IMG/VR virus record: IMGVR_UViG_3300029305_001596
Span: 1-42,547 of that record
DNA: 42,547 nt
Reading direction: 5' to 3' (one strand)
DNA from: a virus
Shown here: piece by piece, positions 5,888 to 42,547 of the stretch
Layout: each line of letters begins with the position of its first letter
Position numbering within the stretch: position 1 is the first letter of the stretch
Made by a program: the position numbers and the translations under genes
Notes under the pieces: generated by a model
The model's database searches: none
What the model was told of the DNA's origin: nothing
Seen by the model: only the letters and a program-made list of their open reading frames with translations

Positions 5888-5893
5888 CGCCCG

Positions 5894-17694: not shown

Positions 17695-18057
17695 TTAGAA
17701 CGGCAGGTCCTCCCCGCCCACTTCTTCGTAACCCGGTTCCTCGGCCTTCTGCTCCTGCTTCTGGCTCAGGAACTCCACATCGCGTGCATTCACTTCCAGC
17801 GTCGCATGCTTTTCGCCGCTCTTGGCCGTAAACTCACTCAGGAAAATGCTGCCGCTTACGGCCACCTTCTTGCCCTTGGTCAGGTACTGGGCGCAGCTCT
17901 CTGCCAGCTTCTCCCATGCCGTGCAGCGGAAAAACTGGGGCTCGTCGTTCTTGCGTCCGTTCACCGCCACGTTGAAGGTGCATACCTTGCGGCCGGTCGA
18001 AGTCTCGCGCAGTTCCACGTCCTTGGTCACATTGCCGATGATGTTGATCTGATTCAT
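17695..18057 (-). CDS. ssb: Single-stranded DNA-binding protein (120 aa)
   Basis: OB-fold N-terminus MNQINIIGNVTKDVELRETSTG... and acidic tail ending EDLPF. Confidence 0.95.
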   Translation of the reverse strand: MNQINIIGNVTKDVELRETSTGRKVCTFNVAVNGRKNDEPQFFRCTAWEKLAESCAQYLTKGKKVAVSGSIFLSEFTAKSGEKHATLEVNARDVEFLSQKQEQKAEEPGYEEVGGEDLPF

Positions 18058-18728
18058 ACAACCTCTTCTTTCTTGCCAAGCCTGTACAGCCTGGCGATTT
18101 TGGTATCTATGGTGATCGGTTCCAGATGGTACTTGTCCATCAGCCGTTCATCCCCGTGCTGGTGCGCTTCCATGTGGTGCTCACGGCACAGCGGCAGCGC
18201 CTCCATGCCAATGTGGCAGATATCGTGCCGGTCTCTCCCCATGCCCACACGGTCCACATGGTGCAGCTCTGTGGGCTTTCCGCATACAGCGCATTTCTTG
18301 TGCGCCATGCAGCTGTAAACGTATCTCGGTATATCGTCGCACAGCTCGCACAGCATCACCGCCGTTGGTATGTCGTAGGCCAGGATGAAGTCAATCAGGT
18401 AGGTGATGTATTCCCTTGCCGTGGTCACGTCGCAGTCCGCAAGGCTGAACAGCTCCTGCTCCATCCGCGTCAGCTCGTCCTTCAGGAACCGGCGTTTCAG
18501 AATCAGCTTCACCTGCTCCGGGCTTTCGCCGCTCCAGTTGGATATCTCTGCCATCAGCGCATAGGCTTTTCTGCGCTGTACAGGGCTGATAAGGCGCTTG
18601 TCTTCAAGCCCTACCTGCACCTCGTCATACTTCCTCAGGCACGCTCTCTGCACGTCTGGAAGCCTTGCTGTGATGGTCACCGTGCCATCCCTGTGAAACT
18701 CTGCAATCTTGCCTGTAATGATCTCCAT
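18054..18728 (-). CDS. HNH/zinc-finger nuclease-like protein (224 aa)
   Basis: ATG 18728 lies 7 nt after GGAGG; the longer ORF runs into the tRNA. C-terminal CAVCGKPTELHHVDRVGMGRDRHDICH...CREHHMEAH. Confidence 0.55.
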   Translation of the reverse strand: MEIITGKIAEFHRDGTVTITARLPDVQRACLRKYDEVQVGLEDKRLISPVQRRKAYALMAEISNWSGESPEQVKLILKRRFLKDELTRMEQELFSLADCDVTTAREYITYLIDFILAYDIPTAVMLCELCDDIPRYVYSCMAHKKCAVCGKPTELHHVDRVGMGRDRHDICHIGMEALPLCREHHMEAHQHGDERLMDKYHLEPITIDTKIARLYRLGKKEEVV

Positions 18729-18748
18729 TCTGGCACCTCCTGTTCTGT

Positions 18749-18823
18749 TGGTACTGGCGGCAGGAATCGAACCCGCGACAAGCTGCGTATAAGGCAGCCG
18801 CTCTGCCACTGAACTACGCCAGC
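18749..18823 (-). tRNA. tRNA-Ile (anticodon UAU), CCA encoded
   Basis: Hand-folded cloverleaf: GCTGGCG/TA/GTTC-AGTGGCA-GAGC/G/GCTGC-CTTATAC-GCAGC/TTGTC/GCGGG-TTCGATT-CCTGC/CGCCAGT/A/CCA. Confidence 0.8.
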
Positions 18824-18945: not shown

Positions 18946-19021
18946 TGGAGCGGTGGGCGGGATTTGAACCCGTAGCCTACGGCTTGGAAGGCCGTTGCTC
19001 TGCCAGTTGAGCTACCACCGC
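18946..19021 (-). tRNA. tRNA-Gly (anticodon UCC), CCA encoded
   Basis: GCGGTGG/TA/GCTC-AACTGGCA-GAGC/A/ACGGC-CTTCCAA-GCCGT/AGGCT/ACGGG-TTCAAAT-CCCGC/CCACCGC/T/CCA. One A:C mismatch at the base of the T stem. Confidence 0.85.
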
Positions 19022-24781: not shown

Positions 24782-25885
24782 ATGCCACGTCAAACATTGA
24801 AACGCCGTGAAGACGGCAGGTTCCGTGTCAAGTACCATGGCATTCAGTTCTACGGCTCCACACAGAAGGAAGCCATGCAGAAGCGCGATGAATACAAAAA
24901 ACGTCTGGAAGCAGGCATCCTTGAAGAAAACAGCATCAAAACCTATGCTGCACGCTGGGTGTCCACATACAAAAGCCATGTTTCGCCAAACATGTACAAC
25001 ACCCACGTCCGCATCCTCAATCGCCTGTGTGATCATATCGGCAATAAGCCCATGGCTGATGTCACCACCATGGACCTGCAGTCGTTCATCAACACCGTCA
25101 GCGATAAATCACAGAAAACCATCAATGCATACCGTGACACCGTCAAAGGCATGTTCAAATCCGCTTTAGGAGACCGTGTAATCGCCTTCAACCCAGCCCT
25201 TGGTATCACACTTCCAAAAGGAACCAAAGGCTCCCACAGGGCTATCACAGCCGAAGAACGGCAGCTTCTCTTATCTGTCCAGCATCGCATCCGCCCAGGT
25301 GTTCTTACCATGCTGTATGCCGGTCTGCGTCGCGGTGAAGCAATGGCTCTTGACATTGACCGTGATGTGGATTTTGAATCCAAAACCATAACCGTCAGGG
25401 AAGCTCTCCGCTTTGAGGGCGGCCATCCTGTCCTCACCAACACCAAAACAGAGGCAGGTGAGCGCACCATCCCCCTTATGCCCATTTTGGTGGAAGAGCT
25501 TAAAGGCAGGCATGGATTGCTCATGGTAGATGTTGATGGCAACCTCATGTCAGAATCAGCTTTTGACCGTGCGTGGTCTTCTTATATCACCACATGCGAA
25601 ACCACCCTCAATGGCTGTGCAAAAAGATGGTACGGCAAAAAGAAAGAACACCAGAATCTGGAACTTCCCCCATGGCGTTCTGTTGATATCCGCCCTCATG
25701 ATCTGCGCCATTCCTTCTGCACCATGCTATATGATGCTGGCATTGATCTGAAAACAGCGCAGAAATGGATGGGGCATGCTGATTATTCCATGATCATGCG
25801 AATCTATGCGCACCTCACAGAAGAAAAAGAAGCCGAAGCCAAAAAAGCTCTTCTGGGGTTCAAAACGGGGTTCAACGCTCAATGA
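24782..25885 (+). CDS. int: Tyrosine integrase (367 aa)
   Basis: C-terminal catalytic region RPHDLRHSFCTMLYDAGIDLKTAQKWMGHADYSMIMRIYAHL (R..HxxR..Y). Adjacent to a tRNA-derived attP. Confidence 0.95.
   Translation: MPRQTLKRREDGRFRVKYHGIQFYGSTQKEAMQKRDEYKKRLEAGILEENSIKTYAARWVSTYKSHVSPNMYNTHVRILNRLCDHIGNKPMADVTTMDLQSFINTVSDKSQKTINAYRDTVKGMFKSALGDRVIAFNPALGITLPKGTKGSHRAITAEERQLLLSVQHRIRPGVLTMLYAGLRRGEAMALDIDRDVDFESKTITVREALRFEGGHPVLTNTKTEAGERTIPLMPILVEELKGRHGLLMVDVDGNLMSESAFDRAWSSYITTCETTLNGCAKRWYGKKKEHQNLELPPWRSVDIRPHDLRHSFCTMLYDAGIDLKTAQKWMGHADYSMIMRIYAHLTEEKEAEAKKALLGFKTGFNAQ
25855..25875. repeat. Arm-type repeat pair GGGGTTCAA x2 left of attP (inside the integrase 3' end)
   Basis: GGGGTTCAA at 25855-25863 and 25867-25875. 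The same 19-mer GGTTCAAAACGGGGTTCAA recurs at 26092-26110. Confidence 0.6.
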
Positions 25886-25939
25886 AAGCATTATAAAAGC
25901 CTTATAAATCAAAGGATCCGCATTCGTAAAGCATTTTAT

Positions 25940-25984
25940 TTCGGGACCAAAAGGTCGCAGGTTCAAATCCTGTCACCTCGACCA
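25940..25984 (+). other. attP core: 3' portion of a tRNA-Pro(CGG) (anticodon loop to CCA)
   Basis: TTCGGGA loop, CCAAA, AGGTC, GCAGG-TTCAAAT-CCTGT, CACCTCG-A-CCA. No 5' half is present, so it is not a functional tRNA gene. Confidence 0.75.
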
Positions 25985-25987
25985 CTG

Positions 25988-26022
25988 AAAACCCTTGATT
26001 TACAAGGGTTTTCTTCTTTTTT
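25988..26022 (+). terminator. Rho-independent terminator after the tRNA fragment
   Basis: AAAACCCTTG (25988-25997) pairs with CAAGGGTTTT (26003-26012), then CTTCTTTTTT. Confidence 0.75.
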
Positions 26023-26055
26023 ACCGTAATTTCCCACCAACCAAAATATACCCTT

Positions 26056-26110
26056 TTGAACCCTAAAAAACACTTATTGAACCCCATCAAGGGTTCAAAA
26101 CGGGGTTCAA
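26056..26110. repeat. Arm-type repeats right of attP: TTGAACCC, TTGAACCCC, GGGTTCAA, GGGGTTCAA
   Basis: Copies at 26056-26063, 26077-26085 (inverted orientation), 26091-26098 and 26102-26110. Confidence 0.6.
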
Positions 26111-26141
26111 AAAATCACCCCTGCACCGTGCGATGCAGGGG
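26108..26141 (-). terminator. Terminator of the accessory operon
   Basis: CCCCTGCA (26118-26125) pairs with TGCAGGGG (26134-26141). On the minus strand it is followed by TGATTTTTTG. Confidence 0.75.
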
Positions 26142-26148
26142 CTTGTTT

Positions 26149-26805
26149 TCATTTCTGGACAATGTACTTGTAGTACATCTCCGCCTTGTTCGGCACAGCG
26201 TCCTCATCCTCCAGCCAGTCCTTGGCCAGGCAGGCGAAAATCTCCGGGCTGTCCATGCCGTGCTTCGCAAGCGTCTTGCCAAAGTCACTCCACACAGCGT
26301 TCATAGCGGCGTAGAACTCAACCATCTTGTGTTCCATGCCCATCTTGGTCGCCCACTTCGCTGTCTCTTCCATGGGGAAGCGAACACCCATGCTGCGCAC
26401 CCAGCGCTCTGCAGTCATGCGATCCAGCCCTTCTGCCGTCCACGCACGGCCCTGCATCATGGGTTCCTGAGCATGCTTGCCGTAATGGCTGCGCGGCTCT
26501 TCGTAATTGCCATTCCCGTAGCCGATCATAGACTTGTCGTATTCGCCGTCTACAGGCCCGTAATCCATGCTCTGGCGGGGAATGTTGCCGAACTCACCCT
26601 CGTTCTTATAACCGCGTTCTCCGGGCTGATAAGGCCGAAATTCGGGGTAGCCGGTGTCTTCGCCATTGTACTTGATGCGGTAAGGGTCAGCCTCCATGTA
26701 TCGGCCGCGCCCATCGCGCCTGCGCCGCATCTCCATGTCTTCTTCATACCGCATCTCATCACCTCCCCGGCTTGCGGCATATCTCATCATCAGGGAATTA
26801 CTCAT
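26149..26805 (-). CDS. Accessory-operon protein 5 (218 aa): charged low-complexity N-half, helical C-domain
   Basis: RYEEDMEMRRRRDGRGRY...GYPEFRPYQPGERGYKNEGEFG, then ...FYAAMNAVWSDFGKTLAKHGMDSPEIFACLAKDWLEDEDAVPNKAEMYYKYIVQK. ATGA overlap with the upstream gene. Confidence 0.65.
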   Translation of the reverse strand: MSNSLMMRYAASRGGDEMRYEEDMEMRRRRDGRGRYMEADPYRIKYNGEDTGYPEFRPYQPGERGYKNEGEFGNIPRQSMDYGPVDGEYDKSMIGYGNGNYEEPRSHYGKHAQEPMMQGRAWTAEGLDRMTAERWVRSMGVRFPMEETAKWATKMGMEHKMVEFYAAMNAVWSDFGKTLAKHGMDSPEIFACLAKDWLEDEDAVPNKAEMYYKYIVQK

Positions 26806-27203
26806 TACGCGCCACCTCCTTCGGCAGCAGGAATCGTCCCATCAAGGCTGATGGCCGCATTGAACTTGCGGAACAGCAGCGGAGCAAGAATCTTGAAAGC
26901 GCCGTTAGCGCCGCTCCCCACAACCGCCACGGGATAGCTGTATCCTGTACGCAGGCGTTCGGCTGTTACCTGTACGCCGTTACAGTCCAGAAGGGGGTAT
27001 TCCACAGTGCCGGTTCCAATGGTGATCACAACGTCCGCACCAATGGTTGTCGCTTCAGGAATATCACCAATCAGGCGCAGGAAGTACGGGCATCCGCTTG
27101 TGTACGTCCATTGAGGAATGTTGATGGTCAGCGTGCCATCAGCGAAGGTGATCGCATCCGGCGTTATGCTTCGCGGGTCAATACGCAGAATCCTGTAATC
27201 CAT
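26805..27203 (-). CDS. Accessory-operon protein 4 (132 aa), beta-rich, unknown
   Basis: ORF track. Preceded by GAAAGGATGTGATGAA. Confidence 0.6.
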   Translation of the reverse strand: MDYRILRIDPRSITPDAITFADGTLTINIPQWTYTSGCPYFLRLIGDIPEATTIGADVVITIGTGTVEYPLLDCNGVQVTAERLRTGYSYPVAVVGSGANGAFKILAPLLFRKFNAAISLDGTIPAAEGGGA

Positions 27204-27223
27204 TTCATCACATCCTTTCTAAA

Positions 27224-27246
27224 GGGAGGCGGTTCTTCCGCCTCCC
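27224..27246 (-). other. Perfect 9-bp hairpin between accessory genes 3 and 4
   Basis: GGGAGGCGG-TTCTT-CCGCCTCCC. Only a weak U-tract follows (TTTAG), so it is more likely an attenuator or stabiliser than a full terminator. Confidence 0.5.
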
Positions 27247-27265
27247 CGCTCTTCTGGGTTAAAGG

Positions 27266-27988
27266 TCAGCCAGCAAGGACATAGCCATTGCCGCAGTTGC
27301 CGCCCCAGCCAGTGAACGTGCCGCACGCGTTGGTGGGGAAATTCACCGGGGTAGGAGGCTGAACAACATACGCAGGGGTCGGGCAGTCAGCGCCCAGGCG
27401 GCGCAGCAGGGTGGCGGTCTGCGCCTCCTGATTGGCCGTGATGAAAGCGTTCTGCGCACTCTGACTGGCCGCGAACTTCAGGCTCTGGTTCTCGGCAGTC
27501 AGGGTAGCGATCTTGTCCTGAGTCAGGAAGTCAAGGATCGCGCGAGTGCCGGAATTGGTAGCGTCGATGATGTCGCGGGTGTTGTTCTGCATCAGGTTGC
27601 GGGTGGCGCAGTCCTCAGTAGCAATGGTGTACTTCAGGTCTGCAATGGCCGCACGGTTGTCGCAGCAGCACTGGGCCAGCTGGCCGCTCAGGTTGTTCAG
27701 GCCGTTCTGCACGCCGTAGAACCCGTCGCACAGGCCGCGCTCAATGCCGCGCACACCGTTCTGCAGGTCGTTAAAGGCAAAGCCTGCGTTGATATCGGCG
27801 CGGGTCGCCATGCCCTGGAAGCCGGAATTGCCGCCGCCAAAACCAAAGCCGCCGCCCCAGCCGCCGCCAAGCACAGCCAGAATCACGATCAGGCCCAGCA
27901 GGCCTTCCCAGCCGCCGCCAAACATTCCGTTGTTGCGGTTTTCACCCTGTCCGCTCAGGTATCCGGTAAGGAACTCATTATCTGCCAT
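27266..27988 (-). CDS. Accessory-operon protein 3 (240 aa): Gly-rich N-terminal TM protein with Cys cluster and coiled coil
   Basis: GMFGGGWEGLLGLIVILAVLGGGWGGGFGFGGGNSGF; QCCCDNR; C-terminal GWGGNCGNGYVLAG. Preceded by GAAAGGATGTGATTTATGA. Confidence 0.7.
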   Translation of the reverse strand: MADNEFLTGYLSGQGENRNNGMFGGGWEGLLGLIVILAVLGGGWGGGFGFGGGNSGFQGMATRADINAGFAFNDLQNGVRGIERGLCDGFYGVQNGLNNLSGQLAQCCCDNRAAIADLKYTIATEDCATRNLMQNNTRDIIDATNSGTRAILDFLTQDKIATLTAENQSLKFAASQSAQNAFITANQEAQTATLLRRLGADCPTPAYVVQPPTPVNFPTNACGTFTGWGGNCGNGYVLAG

Positions 27989-28046
27989 TCATAAATCACA
28001 TCCTTTCTTTATTCACAAGCGCAGGCCGTACGCTCCCGCGGTTGTT

Positions 28047-28259
28047 TCATCGTGTAATGCCGTACTGACGTAGCACTTCGTCTACGGTCGTACCGCGCTC
28101 CCGGCACATGTTTTCAGCCGTCTGCATCAGCTGCTGAGGCGTTTTCCCGCCAATCAGCTGCTGAAGCTGCGGGTTGCTGTTCAGCATCTGGTGGATCATC
28201 GCATCGGGGTTTCCGCCGTTTTTGGCCATGTTCACAAGCTGCATCAGGTTAAAACTCAT
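28047..28259 (-). CDS. Accessory-operon protein 2 (70 aa), helical, unknown
   Basis: ORF track. 11-nt overlap with the upstream gene. Confidence 0.55.
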   Translation of the reverse strand: MSFNLMQLVNMAKNGGNPDAMIHQMLNSNPQLQQLIGGKTPQQLMQTAENMCRERGTTVDEVLRQYGITR

Positions 28260-28566
28260 TAGTAGGTCCCTCCTTGCTGATCAGTCTCTGCAAAATGGCC
28301 CTTAATTCCGCCACTTCGCTTGCGGTCGCATAGGCCACAGGCGGCGCTTCAGGCACAAGCCTGTATTCGTTGATCACGCTGCTGCCCGTGTTCGGGTTGA
28401 AAATCTTCACAAAAACGCGTTCATGCCCCAGATCGGGAAACACCATCGGTCTGCCATTGAAATCCACGGGAACGCCGGTGGCTTCTTCCCTGCTGCTCAC
28501 CATGCAGCCAAGGATCGTAGGCTGCTGCTGGTATGGGTATGGCTGCTGGTAGTAGTTGCTTGGCAT
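28249..28566 (-). CDS. Accessory-operon protein 1 (105 aa): Q/Y/P-rich N-terminus, beta-rich core
   Basis: ATG 28566 lies 5 nt after GGAGGTG (the ORF-track TTG start is unlikely). MPSNYYQQPYPYQQQP... Confidence 0.6.
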   Translation of the reverse strand: MPSNYYQQPYPYQQQPTILGCMVSSREEATGVPVDFNGRPMVFPDLGHERVFVKIFNPNTGSSVINEYRLVPEAPPVAYATASEVAELRAILQRLISKEGPTNEF

Positions 28567-28640
28567 CACATCACCTCCAGGAACAGCATGCCATTTTTCG
28601 CCGTTCCTGCAGATGAAAGAAAGGTGCAAGTTCGGTGCAA

Positions 28641-28698
28641 AATAAAAAAGCCGCCCCGAAGGACGGCATAAAAAAGAAGGGGAGGCCGAAGCCTCCCC
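28641..28698 (-). terminator. Two tandem intrinsic terminators ending the late operon
   Basis: GGGGAGGC-CGAA-GCCTCCCC (28679-28698) followed by TTCTTTTTTAT. GCCGTCC-TTCG-GGGCGGC (28650-28667) followed by TTTTTTATTTT (minus-strand sense). Confidence 0.8.
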
Positions 28699-28701
28699 GT
28701 G

Positions 28702-28890
28702 TCAGAGCAGTTCCTTATTCCGTTTTACCAGGTATTTCAAGCCGCGTATGCTCATGCCGGTCTCGTCGGCAAGATCATAGTAGCTCACCCCATCCACCAG
28801 CTTCCTGCGCATGATATTCCTCGCCTTTTCACTGTGGATGTTTTCGTCAATCATGTGATTCAGTTCACTGTTCGTCGGTGCAGGAACCAC
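28702..28890 (-). CDS. Small sigma-70 region-4-like HTH protein (62 aa)
   Basis: ARNIMRRKLVDGVSYYDLADETGMSIRGLKYLVKR. Last gene before the double terminator. Confidence 0.6.
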   Translation of the reverse strand: MVPAPTNSELNHMIDENIHSEKARNIMRRKLVDGVSYYDLADETGMSIRGLKYLVKRNKELL

Positions 28891-28897
28891 CCCTTCC

Positions 28898-31800
28898 TTA
28901 TTTCTTCAGCCAATTGGCCTCAAAGTTGTAGTCATCATACAGCCCGGTCTGGTACAGGATCCGGCGAATCTCCTTGCGCTGCGCTTCGCTCGCCTGCTTG
29001 TAATGTTCCTTCATGAAGCTGGTAACAGTGCTCTTGATGGAGCTTGCTTTGGTACCGGCATACTCAAGGCCCTTTACATAGCTGCCAAGGTTCTTGTAGT
29101 TGCCACGGCTCACTTCGTCGGCAATTGATGATTTATTGATGCTTTTCTGTTTGGTCGAAACAGTCTCCATTGCAGTTTCATAGCCTTCAGTTCCCTTGCC
29201 AAAAGCCTCGGCAACAGCAACGCTCTTGGCCAGATCCACAATGGCTTTCACCTTCTTTGCCTTTTCGTCATCGCTCAACGCCTGGTATTCCTTGCTGCCG
29301 ATCAGTTCTTCCACGCCAGTCACCGCAATCTCTCTGCCGTTTGCATCGGCGTAGGTCCCGCCCTTATACCACAGTTCGCCATAACGTTTCTTATACGCTT
29401 CTTTCTGGAAGGGGTCCAGCGTTATGCTGTTTCCCTTGCTGGTCAGCGTATCCTTCGTTCCGCTCAAAGCGTCAACCGGCAGCATGTCGCTTGCGCCGGT
29501 CGCTTCACTCAGCCGCAGCAGTTCATTCACAACGGCGTCATCTCTTGCATCTGTCGTGGTAAAGGGGTCAATGAAGTTGCGCCAGTTTTCCTTGGTCATC
29601 ACGCTCTGGCCGGTCACATCCACCTTCTCAGGCAGCAGCTCATTACGGATCCAGGGAAGCTTATTGATCAGTCCGCTCTTCAGTGCAGCCATCATCACAT
29701 TCTTGTCCTTGGTATCACGCACATACGGGTCCACAGCGTTGGCAAGCTGACTGATCAGTGCAGGAACGTTCTGGCTTAAGGCGCTCTCAATCAGCGTGTC
29801 ACGGATGTTTTCCGATGTGCTGCCGTACCCTTCAAAGATATCCTTCAGTCCGCTCATAAAACTCGCGTCCAGGATCTGATCCATGCTGGCTGTCGTTGCG
29901 CTCATCATAGCATTCCATGCATCTTCGTCATCTTCAAAAATGCTGTTGGCAGCAACGCCCATAATGATGGGAGAAACCGCAGGCGCAAATGTGCTCAGGC
30001 TCATGTATTCATTGGTCAAAGGATTGTAAACATAGGGCGTGTACTGCGCACCTACAGCCGTTTGCAATCCGCGCTTCTTTGCATCATCCTCGTCCTGCGT
30101 ACCCATTTTGATCACGCCCAGGCTGCCAAGCATCATGCCCAGGCCAACCATCGCACTGCCGGTCAGCCCTCGCGCCATCCCTTCCACAAACCGCTGCTGT
30201 TCAAAGGTTTCTCCGCGCACTGCTCGCATGCCGTGCTGTATGGCCGTCTGTGCAAGGCCCATGGGGCTGTACTGCCACATGCGTTTCACAATGTTGGTAG
30301 GAACGCCGGTAAACGGCATAATGTAGTCCAGTGCATCGCCGATTCCCGGTATGCGTTTCATCGCGCTCAGCGCGTCCCGCACAGCGTTATCCTCGGTAAA
30401 AGTGGCAAAGTTGGCGTCGTTCTCCGCACGCTCCACCATCTGGTCATAGGTCGGTGTGGTTCCGTCCTCGTTGTGAAGAAGCCCACGATCCAGCAGCTTC
30501 TGCTGTTCGGAAAGACTGTTCACATACGCCTTCTTCCAGAAGTTTCGGTCACCAAAGCTCATCAGGAAGCTTTCCACGTTGCGGAAGGTTTCCAGCGCAT
30601 TACTCTGATACACACGCCCTTCACGTCTGGTGTTGTACTTGTCTCCCTGCCTGTTTTGCACTTCCGCCTTGTCCACAAAGAAGTCACGGAAAGTATCCTT
30701 TGTTTCCTGTGCAAAGGCCTTCCATCCGTCAGCACGTTCCTTCATGTTCAGGGATGCCACTGTACGCTGCCCACTTGCTGCGCCTATGGCCGTGTCAAGA
30801 CCAACGGCAATTCCGTGGCTCACTGCGTTCATAGTATTCTGCGCCACGTTGCCAATCACGTTTCTCATGGGGCTGGTCAGTGTGCCAAGCATGCTCATGT
30901 ATCGCCATGTACGCAGCTTTTCGCGGCCGGATACGGGCGTAATGTTGCCAAACGCCTCGTAGGCACGGGCAATGGCAAGGTCAGCATCTCTTCCTCCGCT
31001 TTCAGCACCAGCACCAACAAACAGGCCAAGCTGTGCGCCAATGTAGTCAAGGTCGGCTGTCGTTACCACTGCAAGTCCTTCGTTCATGTACTCAAGGCGC
31101 TGCACAAGAGTAAGGCCGTTCATCTCATTCATGGGATACGGTGTGGCCAGAATAGCCTCTAACATTCGCTGTTTCACCGTGGCACGGTTGTAGTTGATGC
31201 CAGGGCGACGTTCCTTGCCAAGTTTGTACTGATCAATCAGTGCTCTCTGGTATCCGTTCAGTTCAACGCCATAACGGCTGTCGTAAGAAGCCTGTTCAGG
31301 TTCCGGCAAACCAAGCAGCTTACTGCGCACCTGTTCAGCTGCGCTATCCATAGCCTTCTTTTTGGGTGCATGCGTCCGCAGCTCCTCCTGAAGGCTATTT
31401 TCAAGGCTGCCTGCAACCATTGCCTTTGCGCCAGTGGGGCTCATCTTGCTGAACAGTTTTCGTGCCTGCAGCTCCTGGCCTGCCTTGGTGCCCTCGCGGT
31501 TGTACTTGCTGGCAATGGCAAGCAGCGTTTCTGCGTCACCGTTGTGGTTTGCAATCGCCATTATCACATTGGCTTCCGCAGTATCGTCTGCACTGAAACG
31601 TTCCAGCCCAAGCAGTCTGTCGCGTTCCTGCTCAAAACCGTTTTGCACAATGCGGTTGTACCCGCGCTCTGCCTGCTCCATGTTGGTGTCAATCTCATAG
31701 TTCAGTTCTTCCGGGTTCTGGTACATTTCCTGCTTCAGCCAGTCTGGCATGGCTTCGCTTTGCTGCACGCTCTGCCTGGCAAACTGTCTCTCGCCCATGG

Positions 31801-34800
31801 GGCGCTGCACTTGCTGTTCAGGTCCCATTGCCGAAAGCTGTATGTACTGCCGGATCATGTCGCGCAGCACGTCCTCGCTGGGCAGGCTGTACTGGGTGCG
31901 CGGATGCTGTTCCTTGTATTCTCGCACAAAACGCTCCACAATGTCCTGTGCAACAGGAAGGGTGTTTGCACCACCCTTGTACTCGCCAAGCACGCGCATG
32001 GCCTCTTCCATGTTGAAATTGGGCTGCACAGCCTCCTGCGGCGCGCCAACACCATCATTGTCGTACATCTTAAAGTCGATCAGCGTCTTCCAGTACCCTT
32101 CGGGTGCTACCCAGTGGCCATCTTCGTCTTTGCTCAGGAACATGTCAAACTTCGGAATGCGTCCGTCCTCTTCGCACATGCGAAGGTATGTCCGGGCATT
32201 CTCATCGCCGCTCTTGCTGTAGTCCCAGTAGTCAATGGGGTAGAAGTTTTCTTCCACGTTCTTATACTTGAATTTTCCGTTCTTGTACTGGCCAACCACG
32301 CGGCGTTCGTTCTGCCAGTCGGTAAAATTCTCATATTCGTCCAGCCCCATCAGCTTCAGCTCACGCTCGCCCCATCCGCTCTTGTGGAAGGGGATGATGT
32401 AGTCGAGCTGCGGATCCTTCATCGCGGCAAGCACATGCTCCCGGCTCACGCCAACAATAATGGTGCCAACATTCTTGCTGTACCGTTCACGCAGCGCAAG
32501 CGCATCGGCAATGTCCATGCCCTCAGTCGGGCTGAATGCAAGCGTTCCGTCAGGGTTGAGACCGTTTCCTTCAGCAATCAGGCTCAGGTTGATCTTGATG
32601 CCTGTGTCACCAAACACAGCCGCAAAGTTCGGCACCTTCGTATACGCCTGGCTGGTAAGTCCCTTGGCGCTCATATCCAGCACAGCCTGCATCATGTCGA
32701 TCAGATGCGGGGTCTCAAAATCGCTGAAGCTCTGCACGCGTAAGCCGCCGATTTCAGTTATCTTCTTGATCTGGCCCTTGGTAAGGCTGCGAACATCGCC
32801 TCGGTATTCCGTGCGCAGCTGCACCACCTTCGGGTTGTTACTGCCCTTGCTGTTCATGTTGTCAATGAAATCCTGATAGGCTTTCGGGTGCTCGTGGCGC
32901 AGTTTCTCAAGACCGTCGCTGGTGGTCACCTCATCAAGCCTTGGCTTGTATTCGCCGTTGTAGCCCTCCAGCCATTCACCGGCAAACTTGCCAAGCTGCC
33001 TGCGTCGGCTCTCCACATAACACACGCCGCACGGGCTTTCATAGCCGCTTTCCGCCAGCATGTTGCGAAGACCAATCAGATCATCGCTGGTAAGCACCGT
33101 ATTGGGCAGCAGATGCTGAATCGCGTCAAAGGTTCCCTGATACAAAAGACGCTTGGCGCACAATGTACTTGCGTCCAGCGTCTTCACATATTCCTGATTT
33201 TGCTTCAGCATCACCTGGTTGTCGGCTGCAATGTAATCCAGACGATCCTTGTCAGCGGCAATCGTTGCAGCAACGCTGTTCACATCGTCGATCCAGCGTT
33301 CCACCTTTATGGCGTCAAAACCCTTGCCCAACAGCTGCTGCCTTGCTGTTTCCTTTTCCTTTTCCGTCCAGCTGGAAAGGCTGTAGTCCTTGGCAACCGT
33401 GCCGGAAGGGGTCTCTTCGGCAATCACATTGCCGTCAGAAGTTATTTCTCGGTTTTCAGCGGGTACTTCGCCACGATCTCCCTGGCGAATGCCTCGCGCA
33501 TTTCGTCCTGCTCCTGCTCCGTTTTCCCCTGAAGCTTCATTGCGTTTTCCGCCTTCACGGAAATCGGTACTTTCCTCTCCATACACGCTGTGAAGTATGC
33601 TTCGTTGCGTTTCAAGGTCGTATCCCTCCTGCTCAAGTTCTATCGCATCCTGCTCTATAGCGTTTACCAGTTCAACGTTCTCTGCATCGTATACCTCAAG
33701 CACAGCTTCAGGTTCGCCGTTTGCATCAGTATACACCAGAACATTGTCCATTGCAACAAGGCTGCCGCCGTTCTTCCGCTCCACAAACTGGTATCCACGG
33801 TAGTTCTTGTCGTTCATGTTGGAACGCAGCCGTGCGTACTCGTTGGGGTCAAGCAGGTCAGGAAGTGAATACTGCAAACGCTCCCCTGTCACATCGCCTG
33901 CTTCAAGCCCGTATTCAGAAAGGTCGATAGCGCCTCCCTTTCTGGGGATGGGTGTGTATGCTTCCCTGATCTTTGCTTTTTCAGCTTCGGATGCGTTCTG
34001 GTATTCCTCGGATGCCATCACTTCCTCCAGCTGCTGGCGAAGAATCGCATCCGTGTCAGCATCGTCAAGAATGCGGGTTACCTTCATTGCACCAGTGATG
34101 ATCCAAGGAACTGTATCGGGATTGGGGTTCGTGCGGTATCTGTAATAACCGGCAGTTCCGTCCTCCTCACGAGGCAATCTGGGCAAACCAGCAAGAGAAT
34201 GCTGGAACTTGCCATTTGCATTGTAACCGTAGCTCATAGCCTCTTCCTGATAGTCGTGATCAGCTGCGCACTCGCATTCTGCCCACACAAAGTTTTCGGG
34301 GAACAATTCCTTCTTCCCGATTTCGGGGTTCAGCCTGTTAAACTGTGTTGCCTTGGGAGAATCGCCAAGGTGCCAACCGGGTCGGTATGCAAGCTGCGTC
34401 TTGCCCGTGTTGGTTCCTTTGCCGCCAGCCTGTACCTGCGGTCGGCCAGTCTTGCTGTCTGCTCCGCGAGGCGCTGCATCTGCATTCAACCAAACGCCAA
34501 CAGGGGTCGGCTCGCCACCCGGATTTGCAACCATCGGCGGGTACAAACCGGGCTTGTTCTTAAAAACAGCAAACACCTTGTAGCCCTTGATGGTGTGCAC
34601 AGGGTCAGGTTCCTCACGAAGCGAATACTGAATGCCGTCTGTGGGGAACTCTCTCTGCTTATTTTCTGCACCCAGCGCCGTTTCAAACAGCTCTCTGGCA
34701 CGGTCCAGCTCGCTGTAATCCTCGCGTGCAATGCCCGTCAGCTTGCTGATGAAGTTCTTGATCGTCTCAAGGATCCTGCGTGCCACACTGGGCTTTTCAG

Positions 34801-37800
34801 CGGCCAGACGATTGATACTCTCCTCATCGCCGTACAGGATCTTGCGGGTCAGGTCGGCTACGATCTCGCGCCGCGCCTCATCCTCAGTAAGCGGCGTTGC
34901 ATCCACAGTCGGGTCCAGTGCAGCCATCATCTCAAGCTGCGTGTTGTATCGCTTCATGCGTGCAGCAATATCCCTGTCAAGCTGCCCTTCATCACTGCCT
35001 GAATACGCAATGCCAATCAGAGCGTCTGCAAACTCCTGATAGCTTTCGCTCTGTTCCATGCGATGGGTCAGTTCGTGCAGCACCGTGCCGTACAGCATGT
35101 CGCTCTGCGTGGCGTTCTGGTCAATCTCCACCTTGCCGGTTCTGGCGTTGTAGCTGCCATTATAACGCAGCGCAGTACCTCCCTTGGTAGTGTCCACCAC
35201 GTCAAACTGCACGCCGTACTTCTTGGTCAGCTGCTGCATAAACCTGTTGCGGCTCTCCTGTGCTTCAGGGGTCATCTCTCGCTGGATCTCCCTGTAGATG
35301 GCGTCGATCCGTTGCTGTTCTTCAGGCGTTGCATCTGCAAAGTTGCTGCTGGTAAAGTCAGCAATGCCCATTGCCGTCACGTTGCCGCTTTCACGGGCAG
35401 CGCTGCGCACGGCAGCACGCTCTGCCTTGACAATCGCATTTTGGTTGGCAACGGCAGCCAGCTCCGTCTGCGCCATCGCCAGTGCGGTTTCCTGCACATT
35501 AGCCTTGGCGGCTTCGTATTCACCCTGTGCTTCCTGTGCCTCGCGCTGGGCAGTGACCATCTCTTCCTGCGCCTGGTTCTTTTCTTCGATAACTGCCAGC
35601 ACTTCGTTGGTCGCCTTGGGGTCGGCAGGGTTTTCGTTCATGCGCCGGGTGGCGTCGGCCAGCTTCTGCTGCGTCAGTTCTTTCTTGCGCTGTGCGCTTT
35701 CAAAACGATCTGCTGCCTTGCTCACGCTCTTCTTTGCCGCTTCCACAGCAGATCCATCAATGGCTCCGCTGGCCATCATTTCGCCTGCCTTGGCTTCGGT
35801 CACCACTTTGGTGGCGCGTTCACGAACCGACTCAGCAATGGTCGGATCCTGCAAATCCTGCGCCACCGCATTCACCAGCGTATTCGCATCTTCAGCAGTG
35901 ATGGCGGATTTCTTCATCAGGCTTTCGGCAACCTTCACGCTGTTGGCATAGGAGGGGAACACAGACACAGAACTGCCAATGGAGATCAATCCGCCCATCA
36001 GCGCATCAGCAGTCAGCTCACGGCCATATTCCTGCCAGTCGCGCTCCAGCGGATTCTCTCCCTTGATCAGGCCCGTCACAGCCTCGGTCACAATGTTTTC
36101 CGCAGGCTCCTGCACCGCTTCGTTCACAGCCGTCTTGCCAATGTTCACCATGAAATGACCAAACATCTTGCCCCAGCGCGAAAGCCCGGCCACCACACTG
36201 GAACCGGGAACAAGGGCCAGTTTCTCCACAACCTCTTCCACATAGGGCATGTTGCTGGCCTCGATGTTTTTCAAAATACCGTCCCACTGGCTCATGGCAG
36301 CCGTCACCGCAGCAGCGCCCAAACCGGCAGCAGCGCTTGTCAGGTAGTCTTCACCTTCGTTGTAGCTGTCCCACATTTCGCGCAGTCCGCTCTCTGCGGC
36401 AAAGGGAGTGCTGCTGATCATACGGTTCAAAAACTTCAGTTTATCGCCAAACACAGCAGTGGATGCATTGCCAAGCGCCTTTGCAACGCCGCCCATCTGC
36501 TGCATCTTGATCATCTCACTGCCAACGGTGCCAGCCATAATCTCAAGCGGCGTTCCGTTCTCCAAAAGCACCTCGTTGTGCCCAGCCAGTGTGGTGTTCA
36601 TTTCATTGGCAAATTCAGCGCCGTAATCGGCTACCTCTTCATTGCCAAAAAGCTTTCCTGCACCGGTAATGATGCTGCCAACAAACTTGTCCACCAGGTC
36701 AGTAATGGCATAAGCCGTGTGATCCAGCGCCCACATCGCAACATTGGAAACGCCAATGCCGTCGTTGTTCTGCGCTTCCACCAGCTTGCCGTCCATGCCA
36801 AGCACACCGTCCAGCCAGCCAATGAACCCGCCAAGCTCTTCATCGCCAATGTCGTAGGCTTCCTTCAGCAGCATCTCATACTCAGCCAGCTCCACGCGAA
36901 CATCGGGATCCATCATTTTTCTGGGCAGATCACCGGCAATCGCCATCTGCATCAGCGCAGCGGTCGCCTTCTGGCTGCCCTCACTGTGCACCATGTCCTG
37001 TATGTATTCGTCGCCGCTTTGCTTCACAGCGCCTTCGATCAGCTGAAACTGGTACTGGCATGCAGTGCGGTAGTCGTTGTTGTACAGTGCCTCGTCGATC
37101 CCTGCATACAGTTCTTCTTTCGTCATAGAAGGGCTTTTAACAGGGGTTTCAGAAAGGGATTCGGGTGTTAAAGCCTCAACTTCCGGCGTGGGTTTATAGC
37201 CCTCCTGCGTGCGTTTTGCGGCACCGTCAGTATCGGTGCGCATCACAGCGTCATTGCCGCTCTTTGCGCCTGCCCACAAGCGCCCCTCGCTGTAAATGTC
37301 AGCGGGGGGAGTTGCGTACAGGCTCTGCTTGCTGGCCATCACACCAGCGCCCGGTATGGTGCTTTCGTCAATCAGACTGCCACGGGCATTCACCTGGGCA
37401 ATCTTTTCCGCGTTCACCGCAAGGCCAAGCGCTGCTTCGTTCTTGGCCGCATTGTCCTCTGCCCACTTGGTGTCCCACTGCAATCGGATGCTCTGTTCCA
37501 GCGCTTCTTTGTCAAAGCTGATCTCATGCAGCGGTTCCACTTCCATCTTGTCCAGATGAGGCGTGCGGCTGGTGCCGTCAGCGTTGTTGAAGATGAAATG
37601 CACCGCTTCATCCGCGCTGTCAAATCCACCGCTGCGGATCGTGTCCTGCATCCGCTTGTGGAAGTCGGCCAGTTCACGGTCGTATGCCTCCGTAGCCAGA
37701 AAACTCTGGTAGGTATCGCGGAAGGCTCGCTTCTCTTCATTGGTGCCTCCGGCCAGCACCTTTCGGTAGTTCTGGTCAAAGTAATCCTTGCTGGTGGCTT

Positions 37801-37984
37801 CTTTGCCAAAACGCTCACGGGCAGCAGTGTATCGCGGGGCACTCAACAACCTGCTCCGCTCAATCTCCGCCGCTTTTGAAGGACGATTCGTCCCAGAAGT
37901 CCCATTGCTGGCTGGTTTCTCCCAGCCTTCTTCCTTTGCTATGCTCTGCAGCCGGTTCAGTGCTTTCTTGAACTTATCGTCCAT
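28898..37984 (-). CDS. Giant multidomain (polyvalent-type) protein, 3,028 aa, with an HExxH metallopeptidase-like motif; probable virion-delivered protein
   Basis: Uninterrupted ORF. ATG 37984 lies 5 nt after GAGGG (GTG 37996 alternative). GTVLHELTHRMEQSE. Coiled coils, Gly/Ala-rich hydrophobic helices, and several large blocks I cannot assign. Confidence 0.85.
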   Translation of the reverse strand: MDDKFKKALNRLQSIAKEEGWEKPASNGTSGTNRPSKAAEIERSRLLSAPRYTAARERFGKEATSKDYFDQNYRKVLAGGTNEEKRAFRDTYQSFLATEAYDRELADFHKRMQDTIRSGGFDSADEAVHFIFNNADGTSRTPHLDKMEVEPLHEISFDKEALEQSIRLQWDTKWAEDNAAKNEAALGLAVNAEKIAQVNARGSLIDESTIPGAGVMASKQSLYATPPADIYSEGRLWAGAKSGNDAVMRTDTDGAAKRTQEGYKPTPEVEALTPESLSETPVKSPSMTKEELYAGIDEALYNNDYRTACQYQFQLIEGAVKQSGDEYIQDMVHSEGSQKATAALMQMAIAGDLPRKMMDPDVRVELAEYEMLLKEAYDIGDEELGGFIGWLDGVLGMDGKLVEAQNNDGIGVSNVAMWALDHTAYAITDLVDKFVGSIITGAGKLFGNEEVADYGAEFANEMNTTLAGHNEVLLENGTPLEIMAGTVGSEMIKMQQMGGVAKALGNASTAVFGDKLKFLNRMISSTPFAAESGLREMWDSYNEGEDYLTSAAAGLGAAAVTAAMSQWDGILKNIEASNMPYVEEVVEKLALVPGSSVVAGLSRWGKMFGHFMVNIGKTAVNEAVQEPAENIVTEAVTGLIKGENPLERDWQEYGRELTADALMGGLISIGSSVSVFPSYANSVKVAESLMKKSAITAEDANTLVNAVAQDLQDPTIAESVRERATKVVTEAKAGEMMASGAIDGSAVEAAKKSVSKAADRFESAQRKKELTQQKLADATRRMNENPADPKATNEVLAVIEEKNQAQEEMVTAQREAQEAQGEYEAAKANVQETALAMAQTELAAVANQNAIVKAERAAVRSAARESGNVTAMGIADFTSSNFADATPEEQQRIDAIYREIQREMTPEAQESRNRFMQQLTKKYGVQFDVVDTTKGGTALRYNGSYNARTGKVEIDQNATQSDMLYGTVLHELTHRMEQSESYQEFADALIGIAYSGSDEGQLDRDIAARMKRYNTQLEMMAALDPTVDATPLTEDEARREIVADLTRKILYGDEESINRLAAEKPSVARRILETIKNFISKLTGIAREDYSELDRARELFETALGAENKQREFPTDGIQYSLREEPDPVHTIKGYKVFAVFKNKPGLYPPMVANPGGEPTPVGVWLNADAAPRGADSKTGRPQVQAGGKGTNTGKTQLAYRPGWHLGDSPKATQFNRLNPEIGKKELFPENFVWAECECAADHDYQEEAMSYGYNANGKFQHSLAGLPRLPREEDGTAGYYRYRTNPNPDTVPWIITGAMKVTRILDDADTDAILRQQLEEVMASEEYQNASEAEKAKIREAYTPIPRKGGAIDLSEYGLEAGDVTGERLQYSLPDLLDPNEYARLRSNMNDKNYRGYQFVERKNGGSLVAMDNVLVYTDANGEPEAVLEVYDAENVELVNAIEQDAIELEQEGYDLETQRSILHSVYGEESTDFREGGKRNEASGENGAGAGRNARGIRQGDRGEVPAENREITSDGNVIAEETPSGTVAKDYSLSSWTEKEKETARQQLLGKGFDAIKVERWIDDVNSVAATIAADKDRLDYIAADNQVMLKQNQEYVKTLDASTLCAKRLLYQGTFDAIQHLLPNTVLTSDDLIGLRNMLAESGYESPCGVCYVESRRRQLGKFAGEWLEGYNGEYKPRLDEVTTSDGLEKLRHEHPKAYQDFIDNMNSKGSNNPKVVQLRTEYRGDVRSLTKGQIKKITEIGGLRVQSFSDFETPHLIDMMQAVLDMSAKGLTSQAYTKVPNFAAVFGDTGIKINLSLIAEGNGLNPDGTLAFSPTEGMDIADALALRERYSKNVGTIIVGVSREHVLAAMKDPQLDYIIPFHKSGWGERELKLMGLDEYENFTDWQNERRVVGQYKNGKFKYKNVEENFYPIDYWDYSKSGDENARTYLRMCEEDGRIPKFDMFLSKDEDGHWVAPEGYWKTLIDFKMYDNDGVGAPQEAVQPNFNMEEAMRVLGEYKGGANTLPVAQDIVERFVREYKEQHPRTQYSLPSEDVLRDMIRQYIQLSAMGPEQQVQRPMGERQFARQSVQQSEAMPDWLKQEMYQNPEELNYEIDTNMEQAERGYNRIVQNGFEQERDRLLGLERFSADDTAEANVIMAIANHNGDAETLLAIASKYNREGTKAGQELQARKLFSKMSPTGAKAMVAGSLENSLQEELRTHAPKKKAMDSAAEQVRSKLLGLPEPEQASYDSRYGVELNGYQRALIDQYKLGKERRPGINYNRATVKQRMLEAILATPYPMNEMNGLTLVQRLEYMNEGLAVVTTADLDYIGAQLGLFVGAGAESGGRDADLAIARAYEAFGNITPVSGREKLRTWRYMSMLGTLTSPMRNVIGNVAQNTMNAVSHGIAVGLDTAIGAASGQRTVASLNMKERADGWKAFAQETKDTFRDFFVDKAEVQNRQGDKYNTRREGRVYQSNALETFRNVESFLMSFGDRNFWKKAYVNSLSEQQKLLDRGLLHNEDGTTPTYDQMVERAENDANFATFTEDNAVRDALSAMKRIPGIGDALDYIMPFTGVPTNIVKRMWQYSPMGLAQTAIQHGMRAVRGETFEQQRFVEGMARGLTGSAMVGLGMMLGSLGVIKMGTQDEDDAKKRGLQTAVGAQYTPYVYNPLTNEYMSLSTFAPAVSPIIMGVAANSIFEDDEDAWNAMMSATTASMDQILDASFMSGLKDIFEGYGSTSENIRDTLIESALSQNVPALISQLANAVDPYVRDTKDKNVMMAALKSGLINKLPWIRNELLPEKVDVTGQSVMTKENWRNFIDPFTTTDARDDAVVNELLRLSEATGASDMLPVDALSGTKDTLTSKGNSITLDPFQKEAYKKRYGELWYKGGTYADANGREIAVTGVEELIGSKEYQALSDDEKAKKVKAIVDLAKSVAVAEAFGKGTEGYETAMETVSTKQKSINKSSIADEVSRGNYKNLGSYVKGLEYAGTKASSIKSTVTSFMKEHYKQASEAQRKEIRRILYQTGLYDDYNFEANWLKK

Positions 37985-37992
37985 CGGAACCC

Positions 37993-38887: not shown

Positions 38888-39091
38888 TTACTCCACCTCC
38901 GGCAGTCCGGCAATGCTGGTCAGCATACTGGTTATGCCTGCCACGCAGGCAACGCTCAGTACCGCAACCCAGTTAACGTCCATCACGCCAACCATGTCGC
39001 CTGCCAGCATGCCAACCATAGACTGCGCCATCGTCTTCAGCGCACGCACGCCAGCGCAGGTCCACCACTTCGCAGTAAAAATGCTGTTCAT
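38888..39091 (-). CDS. Holin (67 aa), r1t/actinophage-like two-TM type
   Basis: WWTCAGVRALKTMAQSMVGMLAG...VNWVAVLSVACVAGITSMLTSIAGLPEVE matches the remembered pattern of that holin family. AAGGAGGA SD. Confidence 0.65.
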   Translation of the reverse strand: MNSIFTAKWWTCAGVRALKTMAQSMVGMLAGDMVGVMDVNWVAVLSVACVAGITSMLTSIAGLPEVE

Positions 39092-41386: not shown

Positions 41387-41712
41387 CAGTTCACCCCGAT
41401 CCTGCTCAGAAGAAAACCAACGCATGCAGCCAAAACCACCTTCGCCACCTCACGGGTGTAGTATTTCCACTTCTCGGCAGGCTCCGCTTTCAGCTCGTCA
41501 ATGTCCTTGGCCATGCTGTCCACCTTGCGGTTCAGGCTCTGCTGCCCGTGCATCACATCGCGCAAACTCAGCGCCAGCTCCTGCACTGCATCCAGCAGTT
41601 TTTTCTGCTCCTTCTGCTGCGCGTACAGGGTCTTAATATTCTCCTCGTTGGCGCTCACGCGGCCTGTCAGCTCTGCAATCTCGCGCTCCTGTTTCAGCAT
41701 CTCGTGTTCCAT
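41386..41712 (-). CDS. XhlA-like lysis-associated protein: coiled coil plus C-terminal TM (108 aa)
   Basis: Heptad N-terminus, then KWKYYTREVAKVVLAACVGFLLSRIG. Lies immediately downstream of the endolysin. Confidence 0.55.
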   Translation of the reverse strand: MEHEMLKQEREIAELTGRVSANEENIKTLYAQQKEQKKLLDAVQELALSLRDVMHGQQSLNRKVDSMAKDIDELKAEPAEKWKYYTREVAKVVLAACVGFLLSRIGVN

Positions 41713-42524: not shown

Positions 42525-42547
42525 ACGTTCACACGCTCCCATCCATC
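42421..42547. repeat. Terminal overlap identical to 1-127
   Basis: Read directly. Confidence 0.95.

Follow-up and report, generated by a model that had tools for sequence, protein, structure and literature searches.

The 42,547-nucleotide viral record IMGVR_UViG_3300029305_001596 (positions 1 to 42,547, called the window here in its entirety) is the circularly assembled genome of a temperate phage, and it carries five minus-strand open reading frames (ORFs), g1 to g5, that lie between the late genes and the integrase gene and are set off on both sides by intrinsic terminators. The locus raises the question of what these five genes do and at which stage of infection they are used. An earlier note, made from the sequence alone, had proposed an undescribed accessory system; the present analysis supports an undescribed, coregulated system and favors, with a probability of about 40%, the reading that the cassette, a widespread accessory one of gut phages, is a late, lysis- or egress-associated, non-enzymatic membrane module. 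This role is the best supported one because related cassettes have lysis genes as neighbors, because very late timing is predicted, and because the central protein is membrane anchored.

The cassette and its predicted switch

The five ORFs, of 105, 70, 240, 132, and 218 amino acids (aa), were confirmed where the earlier note had placed them. All are on the minus strand, as g1 (28249-28566), g2 (28047-28259), g3 (27266-27988), g4 (26805-27203), and g5 (26149-26805), and the gene callers of public collections, working independently, give exactly the same five products together with a 62-aa helix-turn-helix (HTH) protein. The g1 and g2 genes overlap by 11 nucleotides (nt), and the start of g5 overlaps the stop of g4 as ATGA. 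A terminator scan and RNA folding also confirmed the terminators. Two in tandem (28641-28698, minus strand; with a T-run behind each of the stems at 28679-28698 and 28650-28667) close the transcript of the late operon and the HTH gene and fold jointly at -32.7 kcal/mol, and another (26107-26142, minus strand; an 11-pair stem at 26117-26142, then a T-run) ends the cassette. Between positions 24000 and 30000 there were 13 terminator-like sites, compared with 6.2 ± 2.4 in shuffled sequences, and Rfam gave no match on 25700-29000.

The hairpin, the repeat, and the common initiation region that had been reported within and ahead of the operon are all present. The perfect 9-bp stem-loop GGGAGGCGG/CCGCCTCCC (27224-27246, minus strand) lies between g3 and g4 with only UUU after the stem and is possibly a partial terminator or an mRNA stabilizer that sets the ratio of g1-g3 to g4-g5. 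The sequence AGAAAGGATGTGAT precedes both g3 (27995-28008) and g4 (27207-27220), and its purine-rich AAAGGA stretch looks like a ribosome-binding site. A similar AGAAAGGATGA is found ahead of g1 in related loci. Several cassette genes, in the window as well as in distant relatives (e.g., g1 in L080 and L058), are preceded by the purine-rich pattern AGAAAGGATG[TA]GA, a recurrence that may reflect a common translation-initiation context rather than a regulatory site.

For comparison, g3-bearing sequences were collected (85 viral and 55 genome contigs) and their neighboring ORFs clustered, and the counts of cassette components are given for 141 loci. In the window, the 62-aa HTH gene (28702-28890, minus strand), the proposed regulator of the cassette, closes the late operon as its last cistron, with its start 8 nt past the stop codon of a 3032-aa gene. 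For its product, earlier described as sigma-region-4-like, the match to Pfam Sigma70_r4_2 stays below the cutoff (17.7 bits against 25.7; E 0.0028) and the NCBIfam sigma matches are weak; the homolog in the podovirus-like relative L003 has an unmarked precomputed Sigma70_r4_2 match. Another homolog (E 2.6e-12) occupies the same position in Butyrivibrio phage Ceridwen, and the two HTH subfamilies are related, with an hhalign probability of 97%. The protein cannot be a complete sigma factor because it has no region 2. An HTH gene lies upstream of the cassette in 91 of the 115 loci with enough upstream sequence, and the gap from the preceding same-strand ORF has a median of 11 nt and does not exceed 40 nt in 76 of 89 loci; because of this short gap, the HTH is taken to be normally the last cistron of a late or lysis transcription unit, and its coupling to the preceding gene predicts late-lytic expression of the cassette rather than expression in lysogens. 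In L146 (7711-7917), the regulator slot is held by an XRE-type HTH_3 protein instead of a sigma-region-4 type, so the slot is conserved and its occupant swappable.

The direct repeat TTGCACC-N4-TTGCACC (28623-28640, minus strand; 11-nt period) provides candidate binding sites for the HTH protein, and the only other minus-strand TTGCACY in the 42.5 kb is at 22587. The TTGCAC repeat also occurs in Ceridwen, L020, L031, and L032, and other lineages have other heptamers in the same place; the repeat sequence varies with the HTH lineage, and the window and Ceridwen, whose HTHs are related, have TTGCAC in common. The layout that recurs after the HTH stop codon consists of two to four direct repeats with a period of 10 to 12 nt, a hairpin with a T-run, and an extended -10 box of the form TGn[GT]AnAAT. 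Repeats of at least 7 nt with this period were found in 35% of unique loci (8% in background), the hairpin and T-run in 66 of 77 unique related regions, and the box in 34 of 77 unique HTH-downstream regions (44%, against 5% in background), mostly 43 to 58 nt past the HTH stop and about 25 to 35 nt before the first cassette gene, with no good -35 element; the elements at these fixed positions exceed background 4- to 8-fold. In the window, the repeats follow the terminators and are themselves followed by CGAAAAAT (28593-28600, minus strand), a weak copy of the -35-less extended -10 box that stands 26 nt before the ATG of g1 and is the proposed cassette promoter. The dedicated regulation that had been suggested was borne out by the frequent upstream HTH and by the fixed position of repeats and box behind it. 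Repeats combined with a -35-less extended -10 box are the predicted architecture of an activator-dependent promoter, and the arrangement of HTH, repeats, and box points to very late expression of the cassette.

Distribution and components of the gene set

Each of the 141 loci carries g3, and the g5 domain DUF7841 was found in 133 and g1 in 126, with the position of g4 filled in 135 and that of g2 in 122. Clustering of homologs and neighborhoods thus bore out that the five genes cooccur elsewhere, and because they recur together they are not orphan cargo. The carriers include the podovirus-like L003, the siphovirus-like prophages L005, L146, and L147, and, among cultured phages and hosts, Butyrivibrio phage Ceridwen, Clostridium perfringens phage CPD1 and its relatives, Anaerotruncus colihominis DSM 17241, Enterocloster hominis, and Bacteroides uniformis phage C3_41T2LP. 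The Bacillota hosts are gut Clostridia, Erysipelotrichaceae, and others. The first cassette gene in 76 of the 141 loci encodes a Cys/His protein of about 125 aa (PHROG 3754) that is absent from the window. Its motif is GDC[TV]IRAI ... GH[VA]V ... D[TS]WDSG (e.g., L047:4708-5085, L039:4087-4530, and L001 at about 5750-6126), and it resembles peptidase C39 and papain-like enzymes by eye only; a Pfam search gave no match.

Searches with tblastn found full-length g3 homologs in several crAss-like phages, in C3_41T2LP, and in viruses assigned to Methanomassiliicoccales; these non-Bacillota homologs keep the CCC motif and the long helical region, with the hydrophobic Gly-rich segment and the Cys/Pro tail also preserved. 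For crAss-like and Bacteroides phages the g3 matches were at E 7e-32 to 2e-16, with g4 homologs beside it (E 4e-11, 7e-4, and 3e-3) and DUF7841 with an Arg/Asp/Glu/Tyr-rich tail also beside it (E 1e-27 and 3e-27; Pfam E 5e-16 in C3_41T2LP). A crAss-like protein in BFVD joins a g4-like fold to DUF7841, and together with these neighbors it indicates that the trio of g3, g4, and g5, at the least, is a unit of long standing. The organisms named in the 33 matching records do not include PhiCrAss001, from which the cassette appears accessory within the crAss-like group. In L149 (cr52_1) and L151 (cr273_1), several annotated genes contain in-frame stops under translation table 11, including one in the g3 homolog of cr52_1; stop-codon reassignment is known in some crAss-like lineages, and these stops are consistent with it.

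The hallmark of the cassette is g3. From the N to the C terminus, it has a short acidic tail, one membrane helix flanked by Gly and Trp, a Gly-rich linker, a helix of about 125 residues, and a Pro/Cys/Gly-rich tail; in the alignment the long helix bears an invariant CCC motif, and several further residues are invariant. Residues 14 to 235 match the function-unknown PHROG 16490 (E 2.4e-54), to which the homolog in virus vir215 is also annotated, and g3 has at least 7,997 clusters of relatives at 90% identity and 1,227 at 50% identity, none of them named. The N-terminal flank is acidic and nearly free of Lys and Arg, a charge bias that mildly favors an N-out orientation (81 loci against 6). Gly-Gly-rich N termini were seen in g2-type and g3 proteins, and the N terminus of g3 resembles a class I fusion peptide by eye only.

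Structure prediction with AlphaFold2, a check proposed in the earlier note, served g4 better than g3. The g3 model has helices at 28-41 and 73-198 and disordered ends, and its predicted local distance difference test score (pLDDT) of 53 is low and too poor for a fold search. The model of g4 is confident (pLDDT 84; predicted template-modeling score, 0.74) and shows an all-beta, knob-like protein of seven strands. Foldseek found nothing significant for it in the PDB (best E 0.15; template-modeling [TM] score, 0.35); in BFVD it matched small uncharacterized phage proteins (E down to 3e-13) and, more weakly, the C-terminal parts of tail-fiber and collagen-repeat proteins (E 1e-4 to 1e-2; TM score, 0.44 to 0.53), and no solved structure of a tail-fiber tip or C1q/TNF-like knob gave a significant match, only predicted viral models doing so. 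The g4 homologs form 317 clusters, all unnamed. The position after g3 is held by the window's g4 family in 40 of the 141 loci and by an alternative family, PHROG 20016, in 95, and hhalign detected no homology between the two. A BclA- or C1q-type knob had been considered for PHROG 20016 from its sequence pattern; a PDB profile search found nothing, and the idea is not claimed.

The g5 protein consists of an Arg/Glu/Tyr/Gly low-complexity half and a C-terminal DUF7841, a Pfam domain of unknown function that residues 125 to 213 match with 44.5 bits (cutoff, 25.2). In many loci the low-complexity half, rich in Arg, Gly, Tyr, and Asp, is encoded as a separate protein, and in crAss-like phages the order of the two domains is reversed.

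The g1 protein has a Gln/Pro/Tyr-rich N terminus, a small beta core, and a C-terminal helix. Its family was found by iterated hidden Markov model searches in 83 of the 85 viral loci, and one relative matches the function-unknown PHROG 21718; the window's own variant has only 7 close relatives. The g2 protein is small, Met/Gln-rich, and helical by eye, with a weak Ubiquilin/STI1-like Pfam match (E 0.052). Its family holds the position before g3 in 55 of the 141 loci, and a second small Met/Gln-rich family holds it in 67. A g2-like KG-x-DP motif (hmmsearch E 0.008, a weak match in a small database) is found in the N-terminal segment of g3 proteins of the crAss-like, Bacteroides, and archaeal-virus type, and this longer, charged segment of crAss-type g3, with its KG-x-DP...AML motif, favors an N-in orientation. 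The extra segment, with the approximate consensus ALMQNxNKG[FVI]DPxxLMAMxNN, stands ahead of the membrane helix in the g3 proteins of L141 (4632-5528), L142 (4653-5570), L143 (4378-5259), and L148 to L151, the carriers being crAss-like phages, a Bacteroides phage, and Methanomassiliicoccales viruses; these g3 proteins may be g2-g3 gene fusions.

The earlier note could name no family for any product, and this held insofar as none of them belongs to a characterized structural, lysis, defense, or antidefense family, while g5 does match the named Pfam family DUF7841. The only family assignments that Pfam, NCBIfam, PHROGs, and PADLOC yielded for the five proteins and the HTH protein were DUF7841 and PHROGs of unknown function; PADLOC-DB 2.0 had no match for any of the six proteins at E values up to 1, and Pfam and NCBIfam showed no enzyme domain in any of the five. 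Sequence and profile searches of the PDB with g3, g5, the DUF7841 domain, and the PHROG 20016 family returned nothing below E 0.09. No cassette protein is named in the source databases, and the literature that was searched held no mention of DUF7841, nothing relevant on phrog_16490 or C3_41T2LP, and no description of such a cassette. By sequence comparison, then, no component has a characterized relative and all parts are new, and the breadth of the cassette across phage orders is previously unremarked in the searchable literature.

Lysis neighbors and the competing explanations

In three of the four crAss-like loci that were read, cassette homologs lie among or beside annotated holin or endolysin genes. 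The order in cr1_1 is a putative holin, two genes, g3, g4, two genes, and a transpeptidase-domain gene; in cr273_1 an endolysin follows five genes after g3; and in cr116_1 the cassette is just downstream of a holin and an L,D-carboxypeptidase, a record in which the L,D-carboxypeptidase/transpeptidase domain type is annotated after the PhiCrAss001 lysis genes. In cr52_1 the cassette is two genes downstream of a LysB/FtsL-like lysis-regulatory gene. Similar neighbors occur in L005, where a CHAP lysin, a holin, and a 67-aa gene precede the cassette, and in Ceridwen, where the order is lysin, one small gene, HTH, and cassette.

A mechanism can be proposed in which the HTH protein, made as the last cistron of the late operon, would bind the direct repeats downstream of its own gene and switch on the -35-less extended -10 promoter. 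Such a feed-forward chain from late operon to HTH to cassette would turn the cassette on last, after the structural and lysis genes, and the flanking terminators would keep it silent otherwise. The g3 protein would be anchored in the membrane, g2 would bind its N-terminal side, and g4-g5 and g1 would join as partners. At the host cytoplasmic membrane this assembly would modulate how infection ends, either through lysis timing and holin triggering or through membrane disruption and release. The cassette is not a basic supply of holin and endolysin, which the phage encodes elsewhere.

Several observations weigh against a lysis or egress role. In the window itself the cassette is not beside the lysis genes, a 9-kb gene standing in between; in C3_41T2LP it follows recombination and replication genes, and in csAssE-Sib it follows an antirepressor. 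Many carriers own a canonical holin and endolysin, and crAss-like ones a separate Rz-like gene, so that there is no lysis gap to fill. The prediction of very late timing draws only on the order of the genes and the shape of the promoter; no activator might be needed by an extended -10 promoter, and the box in the window has no TG and is unmatched by the consensus pattern. The cues to g3 topology conflict, with the charge bias favoring N-out and the g2-like extensions N-in. Finally, the att-proximal end of a temperate Bacillota phage is a classical site of genes expressed in lysogens.

A bolder form of the lysis or egress reading, held tentatively and judged more apt to be wrong than right, is that the HTH protein and g1-g5 with DUF7841 form an unrecognized end-of-infection machine, in which a coiled-coil sensor or effector anchored in the membrane would work with soluble partners of the knob and low-complexity kinds. 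It would govern the time or manner of the cell's opening, or events at the membrane at that point, by a mechanism unrelated to holins, endolysins, spanins, and known antiholins. Such a machine would be common to temperate Bacillota phages, some Crassvirales, and possibly viruses assigned to gut archaea. The cassette is common in prophages of the major human and animal gut Clostridia, and all of its families are annotated as being of unknown function. Control of lysis timing or release, if true, would add a new component to the textbook lysis scheme and would bear on the dynamics of prophage induction in the gut. The set of HTH, repeats, and promoter would be a compact, lineage-specific regulatory switch and an experimental handle.

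The other main explanation, which we consider unlikely although it accounts for the position of the cassette, is lysogenic conversion: the prophage would express the cassette from its own promoter, and g3 and its partners would exclude superinfecting phages, by a block to DNA entry or a Rex-like abortive response, or would change the envelope of the lysogen, with the HTH protein tuning or repressing expression. The cassette does lie between the late genes and attP, and 34 of 86 loci have an opposite-strand integrase gene some 1.65 kb beyond g3; the att-proximal site reported in the earlier note is in this sense recurrent, while attP itself is inferred. In L003, host genes directly follow the cassette, and the window's cassette has its own promoter-like box and flanking terminators. 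Rex-like prophage defenses pair a membrane protein with soluble partners, as the cassette does, and the fast turnover seen in the replacement of g4 in 95 loci and in the few close relatives of the window's g1 fits an arms race. Known exclusion functions, however, usually consist of one or two proteins, and PADLOC gives no match. The composition is also that of late genes: the GC content of the cassette is 0.576 (0.547 for the genome), and at third codon positions (GC3) g1-g5 have 0.59 to 0.77, compared with 0.71 to 0.76 for the major capsid, portal, and terminase genes and 0.54 for the integrase gene, so that in GC and GC3 the cassette resembles the late structural genes and not the lysogeny genes. 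The HTH gene is tied to late genes, and the repeats are placed ahead of the -10 box and not over it, an arrangement that looks like activation from a late operon silent in lysogens. The gene set is moreover found in crAss-like phages, beside lysis genes in three of the four loci and with no integrase annotated there. By these absent PADLOC matches, late-like composition, HTH coupling, and lysis neighbors, the "classic moron/defence" reading with which this locus had first been described is weakened, and it is the weaker of the two main readings. An exclusion system, if true, would be a very abundant unrecognized determinant of phage-phage competition.

A role in the virion, with g3 as a fiber stalk and g4 as its tip, or with the set packaged and injected along with the DNA and the other genes as assembly helpers, is improbable. 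The fold of g4 does resemble the C-terminal tips of tail-fiber and collagen-like phage proteins, a similarity in Foldseek that is modest and limited to predicted models; crAss-like g3 records are annotated "spike protein/glycoprotein" or "outer capsid protein/viral fiber"; and codon usage is late-like. On the other hand, the membrane helix of g3, with Trp and Gly on its flanks, is clear, and the cassette follows terminators outside the morphogenesis block. It is common to podovirus-like (window and L003), siphovirus-like (L005, L146, and L147), and crAss-like phages, whose virion modules differ, and the lack of PhiCrAss001 among the names in the matching records suggests that g3 is seemingly not universal in crAss-like virions.

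A spore-coat, exosporium-like, or cell-surface set, which a small GerE-like HTH would control in the mother cell during its assembly and which would alter the spores or surface of the lysogen, is very improbable and was dropped: the Cys-, Tyr-, Gly-, and Gln-rich composition of g1, g3, and g5, the absence of visible signal peptides, the weak GerE match of the L003 HTH, and the Clostridia hosts would fit it, but it is largely refuted by carriers among phages of Bacteroides and non-sporulating Butyrivibrio, and by eye the conserved -10 box resembles a housekeeping-sigma extended -10, while the PDB profile search with the PHROG 20016 family gave no BclA or C1q match.

Surroundings in the phage genome and comparison with known systems

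The window has a 127-bp terminal direct repeat (1-127 and 42421-42547), and nearly all of its genes are on the minus strand, in the order replication genes, a sigma-region-4-like gene, small and large terminase, a scaffold-like gene, major capsid and portal, tail-associated genes (across the window ends), the 3032-aa gene, and the 62-aa HTH. On the other side of the cassette is the integrase gene (24782-25885, plus strand), which has Pfam and PHROG matches. Between the two, a sequence resembling the 3' end of a tRNA, with T-arm, acceptor strand, and CCA, was found by reading at 25953-25984 (plus strand); it is called by neither ARAGORN nor Rfam and is probably the attP core. The 3032-aa ORF (28898-37996, minus strand), directly upstream of the HTH gene, has as its only match PHROG 30118 (aa 1135-1322) and may be a giant multidomain virion or injected protein of a podovirus-like phage; it contains a zinc-protease-like HELTHR motif, and its relative in L003 has 2680 aa and a Pfam LPD3 domain.

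The window's candidate lysis genes are a holin-like ORF (38888-39091, minus strand; 67 aa), recognized by eye as Gram-positive-type from one C-terminal membrane helix and the end "...SIAGLPE", and a 276-aa endolysin-like ORF (41712-42542, minus strand) with an NlpC/P60-like Cys/His pattern and an SH3-like domain, which extends into the terminal repeat. Tail-associated genes separate the two, and neither has a Pfam match in the searches that were run. The possibility that g3 is the only holin of the phage was dropped in view of these ORFs, and g3 itself has no holin match in Pfam, PHROG, or NCBIfam. Just upstream of the small terminase gene (10413-10820) is a 135-aa sigma-region-4-like ORF (11234-11641, minus strand) containing "...RAVLELYYMMGG...RHVYRLRDEALKK"; it resembles an ArpU/RinA-type late activator, and the phage may have two tiers of region-4-type regulators. 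The replication module holds tRNA-Ile(TAT) (18749-18823, minus strand) and tRNA-Gly(TCC) (18946-19021, minus strand). Since the tRNA-Ile gene is partly covered by the long ORF at 18054-18809, that ORF probably starts further in.

As a type of element, the cassette fits a known pattern, that of a late accessory cassette near lysis genes with its own activator; the comparisons with T4, TP901-1, and Mu below are made from general knowledge of those systems. The holin T of T4, with its antiholins RI and RIII, is likewise a single-pass membrane protein of about 220 to 240 aa that lies mostly on one side of the membrane. It has a small soluble partner at its short N-terminal side, as is proposed for g2 and g3 and as the g2-like part of crAss-type g3 would suggest, and the accessory, non-enzymatic role is encoded with or near lysis genes. 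The likeness is one of analogy, as no similarity of sequence or fold was found, and by analogy alone the cassette would have an effect on lysis timing; the large domain of g3 is one long CCC-bearing helix, and the partners g1, g4, and g5 and the dedicated HTH are extra.

The Rz/Rz1 spanins of lambda resemble g3 in the N-terminal membrane helix, the long coiled-coil-like region, the conserved cysteines, and the Pro-rich end, and three of the four crAss-like loci that were read have their g3 gene within the lysis cassette or next to it. Most cassette carriers, however, infect single-membrane Bacillota, and cr1_1 and cr52_1 carry a separate Rz/LysB-like gene next to the cassette. A two-component spanin is not indicated, since inspection of g1, g2, g4, and g5 by eye revealed neither a lipobox nor a signal peptide and thus no apparent lipoprotein partner.

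Comparable with the predicted regulation are Alt of TP901-1 and the RinA and ArpU activators, which are small sigma-region-4-type DNA-binding proteins whose tandem repeats, spaced by one helical turn, precede an extended -10 box without a -35 element. A putative late promoter of this type recurs among the loci, and the window has the repeats and a weak box. In contrast to these activators, the cassette HTH is predicted to control a five-gene accessory set instead of a morphogenesis operon, for which the window has its separate ArpU-like gene; it has only 62 aa, is itself a late gene, and is of XRE type in one locus, and the repeats are usually separated from the -10 box by a terminator hairpin. 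By analogy only, mom of phage Mu is also an accessory gene at the extreme genome end after the tail genes, off until very late and served by a dedicated activator, although Mom is a DNA-modifying enzyme and the cassette contains no recognizable enzyme.

Morons and lysogenic-conversion genes, such as lambda bor and lom, HK97 gp15, and the streptococcal and staphylococcal lysin-attR genes, have in common with the cassette the att-proximal end of the late region and a membrane protein. A promoter and terminator of its own, as morons have, are indicated for the cassette by the flanking terminators and the conserved upstream -10 box, from which a promoter is predicted. The deviant composition and sporadic distribution of morons are not seen, the cassette having late-gene-like GC3 and being conserved in the sampled loci and in crAss-like phages. 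Unlike morons, the cassette is ancient and conserved across phage orders, and its regulator is wired to the late operon.

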